64,000 bases of DNA from Callorhinchus milii (Eukaryota): the NCBI RefSeq assembly GCF_018977255.1, contig NW_024704742.1:112842001-112906000 (forward strand). The letters are read 5' to 3'. This document shows positions 5,456-64,000 of this stretch, piece by piece; the first letter of the stretch is position 1; each line of letters opens with the position of its first letter. A program made the translations under genes and the position numbers. The notes below the pieces were generated by a model. That model did no database searches. It was not told the DNA's origin and saw nothing but the letters and a program-made list of their open reading frames with translations.

Positions 5456-7070
5456 ACAACAACAACAACTTGGACTTATATAGCACCCTCCACACTGGAT
5501 GGAGTCTCACAGCGCTTCACAGTAACGGATACTAAGGCTGAGCCAGGGGGAGGGGGAGGAAGGTAACCAAAGGTGCGGTCGAAAAGAAAGATCTTCAGCC
5601 AAGATCTGAAAATAGGAAGGGAGGAGGCGAGGCGAAGGGAGTGAGGAAGGGAGTTCCAGAGCCTCGGGGTATAGTGGCTGAAGGCACGGCCGCCAAGGGT
5701 GGAGCGGAGGAATCGGAGGACAGGAGGAGGCCAGTCCTGGTGGAACGAAAGCAACGAGCACTATTGTGAGGAGAGAGGAGGTCAGAGAGATAGGGGAGGC
5801 AGAGGAGTGGAAGGATTTGAAGACAAGGGTGAGGATCTTGAAGTCGATCCTCTCTGGGAAAGGCAGCCAGTGCAGTCTGGCAAGGACTGGGGTAATCGGG
5901 GAGCGGAGTTTGGTGTGGGTAAGAATGTGGGCGGCAGAGTTTTGTATGACCTGGATTTTGTGAATGGTAGTGGAGGGGAGATCGGCGAGGAGGGCATTTG
6001 AATAGTCCAGCCGAGAAGTGACAAAGGCATGGACCAAGGTTTCAGCGGCTTTTGGATTGAGGTATTGGCGGAGACGGGCGATGCGTCAGACATGGAAGAA
6101 AGCGGTGCTGGTGAGGGACCGGATGTGGAGGAGGAAGGATAATTGGGGGTCGAACCTGATGCCTAGGTTGCATACGGTTTTGGAGAGTTTTAGTGGGAGG
6201 TAGGGTAGGTGGAGGAGGTGAGAACCGTGTGATTTTAGACGTTGACGAGAGCCAAAGAGTATGGCTTCCGTCTTGTCAACATTCAACTGAAGGAAATTTG
6301 TGTTCATCCAGCCCCTGAGATCTGACAGGCAGGCTGACAGAACATCAGAGGACTGGGGGTCGCAAAGTGAGGTGTAAAAATAGAGTTGGGTGTCATCGAC
6401 ATACATGTAGAAGTGTACCCCATATCTGCGGATGACATCCCCAAGAGGGAGCGTGTAGATCAGAAAGAGGAGGGGGCCAAGGATGGATCCTTGGGTACCC
6501 CGCAGGAGAGCGGGAGGAGAAGCTGTTTGTGCAGATGTACTGCTGGCGGTTCGTGAGTTAGGACTCGAACCAGTCGAGTGCAGTCCCACTGAGGTGGATG
6601 ATGGAGGAAAGGCATGGGAGGTGGGGGAGGATGGTGTGATCGACTGTGTCGAACATGGCAGAGAGGTCCAGGAGGACAAGGAGCCCTGGTCACAGATAGA
6701 GAGGATGTCGTTTGTGACTTTCACAAGCGCAGTCTCTGTGCTGTGGGCAGGGCGGAAACTGGACTGGAGGGGTTCGAAGAGGGAGTGTGACGAGAGGTGT
6801 GCGTGGAGTTGATTGGCAACAACGTGTTCTAGGACTTTTTCGAGGAAAGGCAGGTTTGAAATATGGCCTTAGTGGCCAGGGTTTGAGGGATCTAGGGAAG
6901 GTTTTTTGAGGAGGGGTGTGATGTTTTAAGGGGGGGCAGGGACTGCTCCAGAGGAGAGGGACTCGTTGATAACATCAGCCAGTAGTGGGCAGATGAGGGG
7001 GAGCTGGGTGACCAGTAAATTGGTGGGGAGGGCGTCGAGGCAGCAGCTTGTGGGTTTCATTGCTGCGATT
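5456..7070 (-). mobile_element. L2 LINE, 5'-truncated ORF2 (RT)
   Basis: QGSILGPLLFLIY, MYVDDTQLY, SRLDYSNALL; (CAA)n tail; degenerate TSD ttgct. Confidence 0.93.
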
Positions 7071-7839: not shown

Positions 7840-9022
7840 AATTACCTTTGTATAGCGCCTTTCACGTCGGGAGGATATCCCAAGGTGCTGGACAATCAGT
7901 GTTTTGGAACCAAGGTGGTGATCGGGATCGGGGAGGGTACGGTCGAAGAGGAGGGTCTTGAGATGTGTCTTGAATCATGCAAGGGAGTAGACGAGATAAA
8001 GGGGCTGCGAGATAGAGTTCCAGAGGGTGGGGGCAGAGTGGCTGAAGGCCTGCCCGCCAATGGTGGGGCAAGCGAGGCGGTGGAATACAAAGTAGATCGG
8101 AGCCTGGAAGTCACAATAGTAGGGGGAGCAAGGCCATGGAGGGCTTTGAAGGTGAGGACCAGGATCTTGAACTGTATCTTTGTATGATGGTAAGACAGAG
8201 GATGAGGGTGATAGGGTCACGAAGCCTGGTGCAGGAGAGGATAATCTGGATAATCTGCAGCCTATGGAGGGAGGAGTTGGGGAGTTTGCATAGTCAAGCA
8301 TGGATGAGGGTCTCTGCGGTCTGTGGTGTGAGACAGTGGCGGAGCCGGGTGATGTTGCAGAGGTGGGGAAAGGCAGAGCGAATCATGGCACGGACGTGGG
8401 GTAGAAAGGATATTTGAGGGTCAAACAAGACGCCAAGTTTCCAGACTGGCTAAGTGAGGTGGAGTGTGCATTCTTGGATTATAATGCTGTCAGCGCCTTA
8501 GGCATGGAGGTGTTGATGGGAGCAAATCAGGAGGGCCTCGTCCAACGAGGTCAACTGTGGAAAGTTAGCTCTCGTCCAGGACTTGATGTCTAACAGACAT
8601 TCTGTCAGGACAGCAGTGGTCCTGGTGTGTAGAGACAGTTGGTTGTCATCCGCATCCATGTGGAAATTGATCCCGTGTCTGCGGATTATGTCACCAAAAG
8701 GGAGCATATAGATATTGAAGAGGAGGGGAGCAAGGACAGAGCCCTGAGGAAAGCCGCACAAGACGGTGCATAGTCCAGAGGAGAACTGTTTGTGGAGATG
8801 AAGTGGAGACGGTGTGAGAGTAGGATCTGAACCATTCAAGGACAGAACCATGAAGGTGGAGGTAAGGGAAGAGACGGTGGAGGAGGATAGAGTGGTCAAT
8901 GATATCGAAGGCAACAGAGAGGTCAAGGAGGACAAGAGAGGCAGAGGAGCCCTGGTCACAGATGGACAAAATGTCATTTGTCACTTTGACCAAAGCTGTT
9001 TCTGTGCTGTGGGCGGCATGGA
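7840..9022 (-). mobile_element. L2 LINE, 5'-truncated, decayed
   Basis: [28 protein letters not shown] motifs; L2 tail. Confidence 0.9.
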
Positions 9023-43024: not shown

Positions 43025-44261
43025 TTCAGATTTGAGGCAGAATTTAGCCATGAAAGATTTTCTTTTAGAATCACTTGTGTTCTGTGTCTGTACATTGTTT
43101 GGTTTTACTTGGAAGCAAGATATCATTAAAGTTAATGGTAAAATAGTAGCCAATGGGCCTCTTATAATGAATTTCTAACACAGTTTAATGATCTGAAAAA
43201 GTCATGAAGTGACGATACAATGTATTCTGGCAGATTCAGCTATGTAGATCCAGCTGTGCAGAATGGTAAAGAGATGCACCACATGCTGTTCATCAAAACT
43301 ATATCAGGTGGTCACATGGGATAATTCCAGTTTTTGCTACTGAACAACAAACTTATATCATCCAGTAGTTATTGATTGAAACCTTGAAAGGTTGCCCAGA
43401 AGTCATTTGCAAGATCACACGAAAAGTAACAATAAAGAAGGTCTTTCAGACCGTTTGATGCCAATCTTCCAATGTAATGATTTCCTATGGTAACAATTAT
43501 TACTTAACAGCTCAGTTAGACTGCAACAAAAGGCTGTACTTAAGTCAATTCATTACCAACAGCTGGGTTACCAGAACATTGTTAAGGTCGCCACAAACAT
43601 ACTACCCTCATGTTCTGGAACTGTTAATTTCAATGAATACCATTATTTCTATGCTGCTCTATGAATATTTCTGATTTTCTGCATCACTTTACATATGCTA
43701 ATCATGCTGTAATACTGGCCCCCATGGTTTCAAGGTAGTCTGGTATACACAGAAATACAGAGCTGGCAACAGTAAACAGTTCTGTCAGGTTAGTATAATG
43801 GAACAAGGCAGTACCTAAATGGCTATTCATTTGTCCTCATAATGTTCTCTCCTCTCTTCACAGAAGAAAGGAAGCACAGTGAACCATCTTACACACCACT
43901 GATCATCATTCCTTGGTAACGATACAGGCCCCAAACCTGTCTGCGACATATCAGCTAAAAGTTTAATTGGCCTTTCAGGATCATAGAATTTCACAAGTTG
44001 TTCTTACTTGAGCAATCTTTGATCTTTTCCATGTTCACGATTCGATTCCATTCAACATCTTCTCTAGCAGTAGTTTGTGGAGAGATATTTGCTGAGGCAC
44101 TTTGTATACTTCTGCTAGATGACTGACCATGTCTATAAGTCTCTTCATAACTTTTCTACACTGCGAAACTGACATATGCTCAATAGCTGTGACCTTTAAA
44201 ATATTAAGTTTAACACTTACTTTCATATTATCAAAGTCTAAAATTTGGGTTGGGTAATAAT

Positions 44262-44281
44262 CTGGGCCAATAGAAAAGTGC
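44262..44281 (+). repeat. Left terminal inverted repeat of the hAT element
   Basis: Exact reverse complement of 47269-47288. Confidence 0.95.
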
Positions 44282-45226
44282 AGAAATATTTGCCTCAAAT
44301 TGCAAAGCGAGTTCCAAATTCTGTGGGGCATTGCAGAGGCTTTTGCTAAATTTTGCGGGAGATTGCGCTGGTGGTGGGGGAGGGGTGGTTACTTGGTGCG
44401 ATTGAGAGATGTATTTCACATATCTTGGATTATTGGGGGAAAAAATATTTATGTTTTCTTTAACAAGAACAGAACATAACATCTTTCAAGAGATACAAAA
44501 GTACAGTTTCAAAACAGTTGCAGAGAAATTAAAATTTTCAAAATCAAATTTTCACAGAACCAAACAAAAAATTCAGAAGTTTAGTGCTGGTTAAATCTTA
44601 ACACGAGAAAAATCTTTATATTTTCTTCTGTTAGGCTTTGTCTATCTTTGAGGAGATTTAAATAAACATAAAATGACCTTTCAATGTCAGTTGTGCTCAC
44701 TGTAACAAATGTACATGTTTGCAATTTTAGCAAGTTTCACAAGTGGCTCAAGCTGAGCTCCCCATCAAGCTGCTATTTTGTGGTTAGGTGGGATATTTTG
44801 TCCAGCTACTATATAAGCAAGCCATTCGAAGTTTGAAATAGTTAAAAAGGACAGGAATCACTACATAAGTCTTTTTCTGCATCCATTGTTGCTAGATGGT
44901 AAGAATCAAAAATACAAACTACTTTATAGATAGCAATTGACGGATGTTTTTTCCAAATCAGTCCCAACTTTTCACTGCTGTCTTGCACATGATTCTCTGG
45001 AAAATGTTGAAACATATCTCTCTCACTCTCAGAACAGGCTGCTAACTTTTCCACTCCCTTTGGTCTGTACTCCTGTGCTCCAGCAATGGCACAGAAATCA
45101 ACAAACAAATGTAAATTTTGCACCCTTAAGTACAGATTGTGGCCCTGAGGCACAGGTGTTGCCTGATATTCTTCAATGAGTTTGATGAGCTCAGATGAGT
45201 GCTCTGTGTCAAAGGTTGCTTGAGCA

Positions 45227-45338
45227 AGGAAACTTGCCTAAGGTTTCGCCCTGCCGGGAATTGAACCCAGGTGTCTCGCTTGGAAGGCAAGTGCTCTAAC
45301 CACTGAGCTACAGGACTCCACTGAACTACAGGACTCCA
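45227..45338 (-). mobile_element. SINE head fragment with duplicated 5' end, 3'-truncated
   Basis: ggagtcctgtagttcagt-ggagtcctgtagctcagtgg... ending at caagtttcctt. Confidence 0.85.
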
Positions 45339-45419
45339 CATAAGGAAACAATCCCAACAGAATTGTGTTAAATGCTTTGATAATTAGTTTGCACTGTCTG
45401 TGGCAACTGCAAGCACTTT

Positions 45420-45733
45420 ATAATAATAATAATCCTTGCATTTAATATAGCGCTTTTCACGACGGAGAACGTCCCAAAGCGCTTCACAGAACACACTGTA
45501 AAGTGAATTAACTGTATATTTGTGGGCGAATGCGGCAGCCAATTGCGCACAGCAATGTCCCACAAACAGTTGTAGATTGAAAATGACCAATTTATTATTG
45601 TTTTTGGTTTTGGAGGGATTATTATTAGGCGTGTGGAGTAAGGAAACTTGCCCAAGGTTTCGCCCTGCCTGGAATTGAACTCAAGTCTCTCGCTTGCAAA
45701 GCGAGTGCTCTAACCACTGAGCTACAGGACTCC
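45420..45733 (-). mobile_element. Full-length young tRNA/Deu-like SINE inserted in the transposase
   Basis: Near-identical to copies at 42677, 55658 and 62598; (TAT)n tail. Confidence 0.92.
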
Positions 45734-46204
45734 ACTTATCAAAGTAAACCATTTTTCCTTTAAGACTCTTGGGAGAGCTTGTGCCACAGTGGGGTGGTTA
45801 GCTCACTGCAAGAATTCTACTCTAATATGAAAAGACTTCTCCCCAACTTTCTGCAGTGGCTATGCCGGAACTGCCAGAAAACTGCAGCCACTGGAATCGG
45901 TGGTCTCATCCAGGAACAAGTACACATCCATGTCCTCAACATGTTTCTTCAGAAATGCTTCATACTCAGGAAAAAACTCCTTCAAGTATGTACTACGAAG
46001 CTGTGATGGTGTTGGAATAGTCCCTCCCAATTTTAAGTACTTGCATAGAAACTCTTGGAAGGCAGGAGCTTTTTTCAAGCGGTATGTCTGCTCTAGTCAA
46101 ACACCACACAAAGTCCAGTATGAATTATTTTCTCTCCATTGATGATGCAGTGGCTCTAGAGAAGCTGGTTGTCAGAGCGAGTTGTCTTTGAGATCCAGAT
46201 CCAC

Positions 46205-46432
46205 CTTGAAAGGAAAAACTAAAAATTGATCTTGATGATGCATTTGTCATCAGAAATGTTCTGTCTATTTGTTTTTGTTTGCTGTGCTTGTTTTATGTGC
46301 TTTTAAAATCCAATCAAAAAGGTGGAAGATTAACTTTTGTAATCATACAAATTAAGATTTTTTTTCAAAATTAAAGTGAAAGCAAAAATGATACATTTTC
46401 ATTTAATATTATATGTATCAAAAGTATTTTAC
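46205..46432 (-). other. Intron 2 of the transposase gene (228 nt)
   Basis: Donor AAG|gtaaaa, acceptor tttttcctttcaag|GT, AT-rich interior; CGGBP1 similarity resumes across it (a 1-nt slip in the A-run must be assumed). Confidence 0.75.
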
Positions 46433-46589
46433 CTTTTTTTTCTTTATTGCCGCTGCCTTGTGTTCACAATGTTTCCAAGATTTCATGTGCTCATCACTGG
46501 TGAACTTGTGAACATGGTCAATTGTGTGACAGCAAACGCGACATAACAACTGTCCCCCTCTTTATAAAGGTCATCTAGATAGAGTACAA

Positions 46590-46786
46590 CAACAACAAAA
46601 TGACATTTATAGATTTCACGTCGGGAGGACGTTCCAAAGCGCTGAACAGTCAATGCCGGGGCCCGAGCATGGGGGAGGGGTGTTGTAGGGGTGAGGGAAG
46701 GCAGAGAGGTGGGAGGGAGGCCAAAGGCACGATCGAAGAGAAGGGTCTTGAGACCGGCCTTGAAGGAGGCAATGAAGAATCGGCCT
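46590..46786 (-). mobile_element. L2 LINE 3' fragment inserted in transposase exon 2
   Basis: L2 tail plus (CAA)n; TSD gagtacaa at 46582-46589 and 46787-46794. Confidence 0.9.
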
Positions 46787-46888
46787 GAGTACAATTCTAT
46801 CTGAGGGACAGATGGAAAATGGGATGTGTTGCCCCTTGGCTTCCTCACAGGATTTACAAAAACGTTTGGACATTTTGCATTGTACAAC

Positions 46889-47046
46889 CTAAAAGTGCAA
46901 GAGCCCTGATTAACACTAGGTGTATATTTCCTGAAAATGTAGTTATGTTTAAAATACTAAATATTTTAATTCCATTGGTACATCACTTACCAAGAATGTT
47001 GCAGTGGTGTGTGACTCAGCTGCTTTTCCTATCGAGGTTTACTCAC
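46889..47046 (-). other. Putative 5'-UTR intron 1 of the transposase gene (158 nt)
   Basis: Donor CTG|gtgagt; acceptor cttgcacttttag|G 15 nt upstream of the ATG at 46873. Confidence 0.6.
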
Positions 47047-47260
47047 CAGCGAAGTCGATTTCCCACACACGCCGCTTCCGCGGTCCAAAAATCCGCCGCG
47101 CATTCACCATCAGAGCCGCTCCAGCCATAGTAGCGGCATCTAGCAGACAGCATGAGAGGCCCGGGGCCTAACACGCTAAGTGTAAAAGTTAGTACCCGGG
47201 GGGCTGTTTGTAGCAGGTTTGTAGTAGATGAGGATCGTTGTAGCGGAAAATGCAGAGAAA
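47047..47260 (-). promoter_or_regulatory. CpG-rich putative promoter and first exon of the transposase
   Basis: Local CpG cluster (gccgcttccgcgg, tccgccgcg) in a CpG-poor window, lying between the TIR and a splice donor. Confidence 0.45.
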
Positions 47261-47268
47261 GTGCAGCC

Positions 47269-47288
47269 GCACTTTTCTATTGGCCCAG
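47269..47288 (-). repeat. Right terminal inverted repeat of the hAT element
   Basis: Exact reverse complement of 44262-44281. Confidence 0.95.
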
Positions 47289-47809
47289 GTAATAGCCCAT
47301 GGACTATTTATGTTCAAATGCACTTTGAACTGATACAAATGACTACAGACTTGCTTGTGACTCTTTTAGTTGTGGTTAATTCAAAATTGTCTATTCGCCC
47401 AACCTGCATTTTAAACCCTAGTATTACCAACAAATGTTAGCTTAGTAACTCCAAACACACATTTCTCCACATTAAATTCCAGCTTGGCTCTTTTAATAAC
47501 CTTGGCTACCTTTTGAAATTGGAATATTAGGTTCCTCTTTGGATGAAAATCAGATTAATATCTCATCAATGGACATGCTCATATATGCTAAGCATTTTTT
47601 TATGATATAATTCCATGCCAAAGGGAAGATTTAAGCACCTGTGGAATATTGAATTATATAACCTGGAACATCAAGATTAATTTGTCAGAAATTCGATGCA
47701 CATAACCTGCTAAAACATTTTCCATTAGCAAACTGTGTCATAATTTCCTCTAGAGTTGGATGTTCCCCTTTGTTTCCCTTGTTTAGTCTCTGAGATTCCA
47801 AGCAGATTA

Positions 47810-62459: not shown

Positions 62460-63940
62460 TACAACAACAACAACAATATTACATTTATAGAGCACCTTTC
62501 ACGTTGAGAGGATGTCCCAAGATGCTGGACAGTTGGGTCGGGACCCCAGAAAGGGGGAAATGGTCAGGGTGAGGGGAGGGAAGTCCTGTAGAGTCCTGGA
62601 GTCCTGTAGCTCAGTGGTTAGAGCACTCGCTTTGCAAGCGAGAGACCTGAGTTCAATTCCAGGCAGGGCGAAACCTTGGGCAAGTTTCCTTACTCCACAC
62701 GCCTAATAATAATCCCTCCAAAACCAAAAACAATAATAAATTGGTCATTTTCAATCTACGACTGTTTGTGGGACATTGCTGTGCGCAATTGGCTGCCGCG
62801 TTCGCCCACAAATATACAGTCAATTCACTTTACAGTATATTCTGTGAAGCGCTTTGGGACGTCCTCCCGACGTGAAAAGCGCTATATCAAATGCAAGGAT
62901 TATTATTATTATTATTATTAGGGAAGGGAGGGAGCGAGGAGGGGGTAGAGTCGAGAGGGGAGCTGAAGGCACGGTTGAAGAGAAAGGTCTTGAGACCGGC
63001 CTTGAAGGAGGAAAGGGAGGAGGCGGTGAAGGCATTGAGGGATGGAGTTCCAGAGCCCAGGGACTGAGAGGCTGAAAGCCCGGCCACCGATGGTAGGGCG
63101 GTTGGGGCGGGGGATGTGGAGCAGACCGGAGCCAGAGGAACGGAGGGTACGGGCAGGTAAGTAGGGGGATAGTAGGTCGGAGAGGTAGGAGGGAGCAAGG
63201 CCGTGAATGGCCTTGTAGGTGAGGATGAGGATCTTGAATTCGATCCTCTGGGGGATGGGAATCCAGTGGAGGCGAGCGAGGGTGGGAGTGATGTGGTCGC
63301 GAAGCCTGGTGCGGGACAGTACACGAGCTGCAGAGTTCTGAATGACCTGCAGCTTGTGGAGGGAGGTGCCGGGAAGGCCGACGAGGAGAGAGTTCCCATA
63401 GTCCAGCCTTGAGGTGATAAAGGCGTGGACCAGGGTTTCAGCAGCGTGAGGGGTGAGGTAGTGCCGTAGTCTGGCGATGTTCCGGAGGTGGTGGAAGGCG
63501 GTGCCAGTTGTGGCGCAGATGTGGGGAAGAAAGGACAGCTCAGGGTCGAACAGAACCCCGAGGTTCCTGACTGGCTTTGAGAGGTGGAGAGTGCAGCCTT
63601 GGATGCTGATGCTGTCAGCGCCTGAGGTGCGGAGGCGCTGACGTGAGCCAATCAGGAGGGCCTCAGTTTTGCACACGTTGAGCTGAAGAAAGTTGTCTCT
63701 CGTCCACGACTCGATGTCGGACAGGCAGGCTGTCAGGACATCGGTGGTCGTGGAGTTGAGGGTAGAGGAGGAAAGGTAGAGTTGGGTGTCATCCGCATAC
63801 ATGTGGAAGTTAACCCCATGTCTGCGGATGATGTCACCAAGGGGGAGCATATAGAGGGTGAAGAGGAGGGGACCGAGGACAGAGCCTTGAGGGGCACCGC
63901 ACGAGACAGTGCGGGGGCTGGAGGAAAAGCCGTTAGCGAA
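62460..63940 (-). mobile_element. Young L2 LINE (5'-truncated RT plus 3' end) interrupted by a SINE
   Basis: 310-aa ORF 62918-63850 with [34 protein letters not shown]. Confidence 0.95.
62598..62920 (+). mobile_element. Full-length young tRNA/Deu-like SINE in the L2 3' UTR
   Basis: TSD-like agggaag; stuttered 5' end. Confidence 0.93.
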
Positions 63941-64000
63941 GAATATATCTTAGGCAATGTTTTTTCTAGTTTGGGAAAAAAATCACACTCTTATTTTCTG

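Follow-up and report, generated by a model that had tools for sequence, protein, structure and literature searches.

What is the minus-strand coding debris, framed by inverted repeats, that lies at 44262-47288 of a 64,000-nucleotide stretch of the elephant shark (Callorhinchus milii) genome (assembly GCF_018977255.1, contig NW_024704742.1, 112,842,001-112,906,000; hereafter the window), and how does it stand to the mammalian protein CGGBP1? An original prediction, drawn by a model from the letters alone, took it for a fossil hAT transposon with intact ends and a spliced gene for a CGGBP1-like transposase, formerly mobile and related to the lineage that founded CGGBP1. In our analysis the locus is, very probably, one dead copy of an old family of DNA transposons of the hAT superfamily. 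It is an ordinary object, probably non-autonomous from the start, belonging to an extinct family of CGGBP-type hAT elements; the copy is incomplete even without its inserts, and between the family and the source of CGGBP1 there is no particular closeness. The description "fossil hAT with a CGGBP1-like N-terminus" is supported by the sequence comparisons set out below.

The two ends of the element, 44262-44281 and 47269-47288, are exact reverse complements at 20 of 20 positions and form, as had been claimed, a perfect pair of 20-bp terminal inverted repeats (TIRs), a length within the range of about 10-25 bp usual for hAT elements. Allowing up to 3 mismatches, the TIR 20-mer has no site in the 64-kb window beyond these two ends, and 0 of 100 shuffles produced a match. 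Genome-wide, in the 991-Mb assembly, the TIR at no more than 2 mismatches occurs 797 + 751 = 1,548 times, against 0 + 0 for the reversed control. A chance origin of the ends is ruled out by the shuffles together with the genome-wide count against its control. Immediately outside the TIRs lie the octamers GTAATAAT and GTAATAGC, identical at 6 of their 8 positions, the very target-site duplication (TSD) that had been read there; agreement at 6 or more positions is expected by chance with p ~0.004 (binomial, equal base frequencies). Since the 300-bp left flank used for the search is single-copy, no paralogous empty site could be found, and none was.

The element is far from alone. Its left and right ends match 59 (40 scored of 395) and 41 (40 scored of 405) other loci, and three pieces of its protein match 56 (65 of 65 scored), 61 (76 of 76) and 125 (150 scored of 214). 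Seven long elements with both ends, the window copy included, were compared, and six of them carry TSDs that agree at 6, 7, 8, 7, 6 and 7 of 8 positions. Furthermore, four short elements of 614, 1,022, 1,342 and 869 bp have perfect TIRs and TSDs of 8/8, 7/8, 8/8 and 8/8, respectively, while sharing with the window element only the terminal 20-100 bp; they are derivatives of the family that are MITE-like (MITE, miniature inverted-repeat transposable element). Altogether, the TSD agrees at 6 or more of 8 positions in 10 of the 11 long and short elements checked. All ten of these TSDs have T at position 2, 6-7 have A at position 7, and in 9-10 the two central positions, 4-5, read AT; this base pattern fits the known hAT target consensus, nTnnnnAn. 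Since many copies thus occupy separate sites and are flanked by 8-bp TSDs of their own, the family was formerly mobile, and the further copies, short derivatives and duplications that the original prediction had proposed to look for are all present. The nearest relative of the window copy (L040; 98 by the Shimodaira-Hasegawa-like approximate likelihood-ratio test, SH-aLRT, and 93% identity over 567 columns) is a 1,624-bp internal-deletion derivative with its own 7/8 TSD, which lies 1.35 Mb away on the same contig (G000:C1:114234893-114236516). Local hopping is well known among hAT elements, and this proximity fits it.

The assignment to the hAT superfamily was reached through relatives in better condition. 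With a 224-aa open frame of the sister copy L029 as query we obtained four intact proteins, 488-520 aa long and 48-50% identical to it (E 3e-56 to 2e-50). All of them contain the hAT dimerisation domain Dimer_Tnp_hAT (PF05699), which scores 41.9-47.5 bits where the cut-off is 21.4. P0003, the one intact relative searched against the PDB, returned Hermes transposase in 4 of 4 matches (E 4.4e-6 to 1.3e-5). The same protein aligns to the window DNA at 46196-45752 (E 4.6e-26) and, with its residues 297-511, at 45225-44590 (tblastn, E 2.6e-15); the sea-urchin protein P0032, in which DUF659 scores above cut-off as it does in P0027 and P0034, matches the C-terminal half in the window at E 1.1e-4 and 0.001. 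The dimerisation region of the intact relatives aligns to 44709-44590, where the window pieces alone give no Pfam match; the domain is attested by homology for the family and not for this copy independently. All three codons of the catalytic DDE triad, namely D at 45908-45910, D at 45396-45398 and E at 44680-44682, align with P0003, P0032 and Hermes, precisely where the original prediction had put them (in DETTD, 45910-45896; the D of TDSA, 45398-45396; and the E of ERSF, 44682-44680). The C-x-AH-LLNL and RW motif region, deleted in the window, is present in L029. We place the family in the hAT superfamily because of the hAT domain of the relatives, the Hermes matches, the window alignments and the 8-bp TSDs. 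The TSD length of 8 bp, together with the hAT domain and the matches to Hermes, led us to reject any other transposon superfamily. The fossil hAT transposon with intact ends is accordingly a sound description, resting on TIRs, TSDs, copies and homology to intact hAT relatives.

Several points weigh against this reading. Membership of the superfamily rests on a chain that passes through more intact relatives because the window pieces have no Pfam match: Pfam, run on 15 open reading frame (ORF) pieces of the window, gave no relevant family and chance-level matches only, and pieces of sister copies remain below threshold (DUF659, 23.6 bits in L029 with a cut-off of 34.7; Dimer_Tnp_hAT, 13.1 bits with a cut-off of 21.4). 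The TIR begins with CTG, which differs from the usual start, most hAT TIRs beginning with CAG or TAG. One of the seven long copies (L039) is without a TSD (1/8). Scoring in the DNA end searches was limited to 40 candidates apiece, and the four short elements were chosen by eye as close plus/minus TIR pairs among the first 100 listed places. As for the gene, the second of its two introns (B) has a readable junction in 4 copies, of which one (L038) splices it in phase, and the first (A) may fall either in the leader or in the coding part. Finally, the copy tree has hardly any resolution, which leaves a single origin of the nonsense codon taken up below likely and unproven. Additionally, a PDB search with the L029 open frame gave nothing relevant.

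The family is extinct. Among the 84 scored of 177 candidates in the genome there is no stop-free match covering most of P0003, and those that do cover most of it all carry 6-9 stops. Kimura two-parameter (K2P) distances among 8 full copies have a pairwise mean of 0.174 (0.149-0.225) and form a star-like pattern, which indicates one old burst. Something else resides on two small unplaced contigs, where paired adjacent stop-free frames (263 or 261 aa + 277 aa, at G000:C400:62044-63715 and G000:C429:5086-6750) match P0003 at 37% and 25% identity. They represent a different, more distant hAT-like gene that is possibly intact, whether an active element or a domesticated gene.

How far, then, does the likeness to CGGBP1 extend? 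We used P0002, a UniRef model of 147 aa in which the zinc-finger exon and the main exon of a sister copy are spliced together, and found 206 proteins at E <= 1e-3 among 1.84 billion representatives. The 15th of these (P0020; E 2.7e-14, 44% identity) is a cluster holding mammalian CGGBP1 of shrew, yak, possum, marmot and baboon. Compared directly with shrew CGGBP1 (XP_054981099.1, P0172), P0002 shows 39% identity over 137 aa (E 3e-24) and P0008 34% identity (E 7e-23). In the 64-kb window, shrew CGGBP1 has three colinear minus-strand matches, all inside the element (E 3.6e-6 and 0.007 on 45735-46204, and 0.003), with the next best match at E 1.9. The CGGBP1-like N-terminus of the original prediction is therefore borne out both by the sister model and by the window DNA; even the CGGBP1 strings that it had quoted agree letter for letter with the shrew protein, and, as it had said, the reading continues beyond the point where CGGBP1 ends (167 aa) into a DDE transposase. 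A CGGBP-type N-terminus together with DUF659 and Dimer_Tnp_hAT, both above cut-offs, is found in P0032, P0027, P0034, P0077, P0086 and P0126. Pfam holds no CGGBP model, and P0002 and the sturgeon 'CGGBP1' P0039 match 0 of its families; in the PDB, P0039 retrieved no CGGBP1 structure and a weak U1-type zinc-finger match (WBP4, E 0.28). In the ESM Atlas, the zinc-finger exon of copy L034 met with low recognition, the top clusters (unnamed, zf-C2H2_12 at 0.90 and zf-BED at 0.89) serving as leads only. One member of the P0020 cluster, formed at 90% identity, is a 167-aa Ixodes ricinus record, 'putative cgg triplet repeat-binding protein 1', which probably entered a tick transcriptome as contamination from the blood of the host.

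The features of the element and of its gene are collected in Table 1.

Table 1. Features of the hAT element and its target-site duplications, in window coordinates (strand "." for the duplications).
Feature	Position	Strand	Basis
TSD, left copy, GTAATAAT	44254..44261	.	6/8 match to 47289-47296
TIR, 3' end of element in gene sense, CTGGGCCAATAGAAAAGTGC	44262..44281	+	797 + 751 matches genome-wide
3' untranslated and subterminal region, between stop TAA and TIR	44282..44580	-	aligns to other copies
C-terminal half of transposase, stop TAA 44581-44583	44581..45225	-	P0003 tblastn, E 2.6e-15
Head fragment of tRNA-derived short interspersed nuclear element (SINE)	45226..45342	-	Rfam tRNA, 59.8 bits at 45246-45317
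Short coding remnant: second catalytic D 45396-45398 ('ATDSA') and 'KAFNTILLGLFP'	45343..45416	-	
Full-length tRNA-headed SINE in transposase gene	45417..45734 (bounds +/- ~3 nt)	-	not in 7 other copies
Main exon, 5' part: second half of CGGBP-like DNA-binding region, start of catalytic domain	45735..46204	-	P0003 tblastn, E 4.6e-26
Intron B, 228 bp, GT...AG	46205..46432	-	spliced in public models P0002, P0010
Zinc-finger exon, 3' part, C-x2-C ... H-x5-H, 'LCRVCCHTIDHVHKFTSDEHMKSWKH'	46433..46589	-	P0018 tblastn, E 4.5e-6; shrew CGGBP1, E 0.003
SINE-like repeat (about 197 bp) and second copy of its 8-bp duplication GAGTACAA	46590..46794	-	not in 7 other copies
Zinc-finger exon, 5' part, likely start codon 46871-46873 ('MSKRFCKSCEEAKGQHIPFSICPSDRIVL')	46795..46888	-	N-terminus as in model P0008
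Intron A, 158 bp, GT...AG, probably in 5' leader	46889..47046	-	splice sites conserved
First exon and 5' subterminal region, CpG/CGG-rich	47047..47268	-	CGG/CCG counts, 8 copies
TIR, 5' end of element in gene sense	47269..47288	-	exact reverse complement of 44262-44281
TSD, right copy, GTAATAGC	47289..47296	.	paired with 44254..44261

The intron boundaries can be followed across the copies (slashes mark the junctions). At intron A, the donor CTG/GTGAGTAA is present in 6 of 8 copies and the acceptor TTTTAG/GTTGTAC in 7 of 8, with L039 keeping the AG; at intron B, the donor AAG/GTAAAATAC and the acceptor AG/GTGGATCTGG are kept in most of the 8 aligned copies. The reading frame across intron B is continuous in L038 and off by one in the window copy, L064 reads through the junction by another route, and the public gene models splice it in differing frames; since the frame varies in this way among copies, splicing is something that we infer. 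The gene that had been expected to emerge once the inserts and two introns were removed is thus confirmed in its conserved GT-AG sites and not in its completeness: about 114 codons are missing, and the window copy is out of phase. Toward the 3' end of the gene there is a 131-aa open stretch at 44842-45237, followed by the hAT dimerisation and catalytic-E region at 44590-44709 (E at 44680-44682), and the stop TAA is conserved across copies. At the opposite end, the CGG-rich first exon is probably a promoter or leader and possibly holds binding sites for the transposase. In gene sense, the first 250 nt of the element contain 13 CGG/CCG and the last 250 contain 1, with a mean of 2.6 per 250 nt; the bias is alike in 8 of 8 copies (4-17 at the 5' end vs 1-4 at the other end) despite the age of the family.

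The three retroelement inserts of the original prediction turned out to be of two kinds. Those at 46590-46794 and 45417-45734 are clean insertions. The former is a high-copy repeat with 90-93% identity to other copies (40 scored of at least 3,823 candidates), flanked by the 8-bp duplication GAGTACAA at 46582-46589 and 46787-46794 (read by eye). The latter contains a tRNA-like head (Rfam tRNA, 50.2 bits at 45660-45731) and shows 96-97% identity to other genomic copies (40 scored of at least 2,692 candidates). They are two SINE-type families, one young (96-97%) and one older (90-93%), with a common 26-nt core (D4). The third, at 45226-45342, is not clean: it stands in place of 285-346 bp present in L037, L042, L036 and L044, the four copies on which the gap was measured (L035 has no alignable piece on one side), and it is a 91% direct repeat of 45636-45736. 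About 114 codons were lost here, approximately residues 183-296 of P0003 and including the C-x-AH-LLNL and RW motif region, and excising the fragment leaves the gene unrestored. The nested SINEs give a relative order of events, from the hAT burst through the older repeat (90-93%) to the young SINE (96-97%). Their tRNA-like heads exceed the Rfam tRNA threshold and could be miscalled as tRNA genes. The 64-kb surroundings are likewise rich in repeats, and three minus-strand open frames at 6086-6868, 8498-8980 and 62918-63949, with RVT_1 at 53.1, 31.8 and 55.8 bits, all above the Pfam cut-off, are remains of LINE-type (long interspersed nuclear element) retroelements.

The next question is when the copy lost its gene. 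An autonomous element has an uninterrupted transposase gene, and the window copy has instead two stops (TAA, in frame, at 46125-46127; TAG at 45860-45862), one frameshift near 46075-46096 and others between 44710 and 44890; it is without evident function now. At the position of the TAA, intact relatives carry E, and in a survey of 22 copies (3 of them unreadable) the codon was TAA in 11 of the 19 readable ones, GAA in 7 and AAA in 1. Mapped on the copy tree, the TAA label takes 4 changes. Shuffled labels need 6.6 on average and come out as low in 19 of 500 cases, and no more than 1 change is forced by starred branches. The likeliest reading of the shared TAA is that a defective source lineage was moved in trans; because 10 other copies have the nonsense codon in common with it, the window copy was probably inactive, unable to make transposase, already on landing. 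It is unlikely, in our view, that the copy was complete and autonomous on insertion and that all of its defects, the TAA included, arose later in place. That course of events would suit the full-length architecture (the two ends, the two introns and the complete set of DDE codons), the star-like copy tree with its 4 label changes and the sense codon elsewhere (GAA in 7 copies, AAA in 1). However, it would require an identical G-to-T change in the same codon of 11 of 19 readable copies, a recurrence that is very unlikely at about 9% divergence per copy (half of the K2P distance of 0.174), and the TAA label clusters beyond what the shuffles give by chance, while the starred branches permit one origin.

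We then consider the place of the family relative to the source of CGGBP1 itself, with a quick 90-row and a careful 28-row tree of N-terminal domains (156 columns, no outgroup). Five shark models form one clade (99 in the 90-row tree, 100/98 in the 28-row tree), and amniote CGGBP1 groups with the coelacanth protein P0054 (95/84) and with P0087 (97/94), apart from the shark family. Forcing the shark family and amniote CGGBP1 together, a grouping named for the topology test after the first tree had been seen, costs 44.9 log-likelihood units in the 28-row tree, with p = 0.01 in the approximately unbiased test (p-AU). One might suppose the shark family to be the closest surviving transposon sister lineage of the element domesticated as amniote CGGBP1, seeing that the CGGBP1 cluster ranks 15th of 206 for P0002, at 44% identity vs 26-40% for most full-length hAT matches, and that the pairwise E value with shrew CGGBP1 is as low as 3e-24. 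This is highly improbable, however, as both trees separate the two and the test rejects their joining. Thus, of the predicted mobile relative of the CGGBP1-founding lineage, the former mobility stands, and the kinship shrinks: on these trees the family appears to be a relative of CGGBP1's source in a broad sense only, on another branch. The picture of CGGBP1 origin is unchanged by it.

Public databases already hold at least 7 protein records placed on dead copies of this family, namely the C. milii UniRef proteins P0001, P0002, P0007, P0008, P0010 and P0011, which are 100% identical to translations of sister loci, and P0009. One record bears the name 'DUF4371 domain-containing protein'. P0009 is XP_007903228.1, which sits on another copy at 69% identity to P0002; since RefSeq calls it 'LOW QUALITY PROTEIN: CGG triplet repeat-binding...', the CGGBP likeness had already been caught by an annotation pipeline. 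It would be wrong to take any of these records for a shark CGGBP gene. The idea of a domesticated host gene at this locus, now or in the past (a shark CGGBP and not transposon debris), can be dismissed even though public pipelines made protein models on sister copies and gave one of them that name: a domesticated gene would have an intact ORF, neither TIRs nor TSD and a single or low copy number, whereas here the ends are marked by TIRs and a TSD, the family counts hundreds of copies, the frame is interrupted by two stops, by frameshifts and by two SINE insertions and has lost about 114 codons to a deletion, and the RefSeq model is itself flagged LOW QUALITY.

Around the observed ends, TSDs, copy number, homology, inserts and damage, the following history may be proposed. 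The transposase would have combined a zinc finger and a Hermes-like DNA-binding region (the 'CGGBP' domain) with an RNase-H-like DDE domain and a hAT dimerisation region, and it would have been read from a gene of three exons. By analogy with Hermes and other studied hATs, its N-terminus presumably bound the 20-bp TIRs and subterminal DNA, and its DDE site, as in Hermes, would have excised the element and pasted it into a staggered 8-bp target, giving the 8-bp duplication. The same enzyme may also have moved the many short non-coding derivatives with identical ends. The present copy landed at GTAATAAT, probably already lacking the capacity for a full-length transposase. Later it received two SINE insertions, and then lost about 300 bp by a SINE-linked deletion and acquired further stops and frameshifts.

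The connection between CGGBP1 and hAT-19-type elements is already published (PMC8097297, PMC9004415). According to the main text of Yellan et al. 2021 (PMC8097297), a CGGBP1 domain model recognises 29 of 824 RepeatMasker hATs, mainly hAT-19 (13/16), and binding motifs are found in subterminal regions; the origin of CGGBP1 from hAT19 is stated in Frith 2022 (PMC9004415), and the presence of hAT in all vertebrate lineages in Chalopin et al. 2015 (PMC4350176). Neither Callorhinchus nor shark is mentioned in the main text of Yellan et al. (PMC8097297; Table S1 lies outside that scope), and the literature on CGGBP1 with Callorhinchus or on hAT-19 transposons yielded no published description of this family. 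It is possible, though somewhat doubtful, that the family is new to print and to repeat libraries, and that it brings the cartilaginous fishes into the range of hAT-19-like CGGBP-type transposons, its roughly 1,500 termini including MITE-like derivatives. If this were so, the hAT subgroup would already have been active in an early lineage of jawed vertebrates, or would have been horizontally transferred to it, independently of the CGGBP1 branch. In any event, hAT elements of the CGGBP type multiplied at one time in a chimaera genome, both as coding copies and as many short derivatives. The value of this is modest, one data point for the patchy distribution discussed in the main text of Yellan et al. 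(PMC8097297).

Compared with known systems, the element shares with amniote CGGBP1 the zinc finger and the second DNA-binding half (39%, 137 aa), the motifs being colinear in the window. CGGBP1, however, is one host protein of 167 aa and stops behind its DNA-binding region, whereas the shark element has a DDE transposase, TIRs and TSDs, is multi-copy and dead, and falls on another branch of the domain tree. The coelacanth LOC102354807 (P0054/P0171, 634-649 aa) likewise has a CGGBP-type N-terminus (E 9.7e-10 to P0002) and a weak DUF659; it differs in that, of the long proteins on the tree, it stands closest to amniote CGGBP1, and in having no Dimer_Tnp_hAT at E <= 0.01. Hermes of Musca domestica (PDB 2BW3, 4D1Q, 6DWW, 8EDG) also makes 8-bp TSDs, and the C-terminal catalytic-E region of P0003 aligns with it (E 4e-6 to 1e-5), 'SERTFS' standing against 'VERVFS' and the window reading 'IERSF'; a weak first domain of the P0003 alignment lines up D..TD and C-x-SHLL. 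Hermes is very distant nonetheless: the C-terminal 65-80 aa alone score independently, and the shark N-terminal domain is CGGBP-type, without a Pfam zf-BED match. A further parallel is with hAT-19-type elements, a label that we infer for the shark family. The main text of PMC8097297 names bony fish, lamprey, insects and fungi; the present family is from a shark, extinct, with a TIR that starts CTG. What they have in common is a zinc finger and a Hermes-like DNA-binding region akin to CGGBP1, followed in intact relatives by a catalytic and dimerisation region, and the CGG-rich leader of the shark element is in line with the subterminal motifs described there (PMC8097297).

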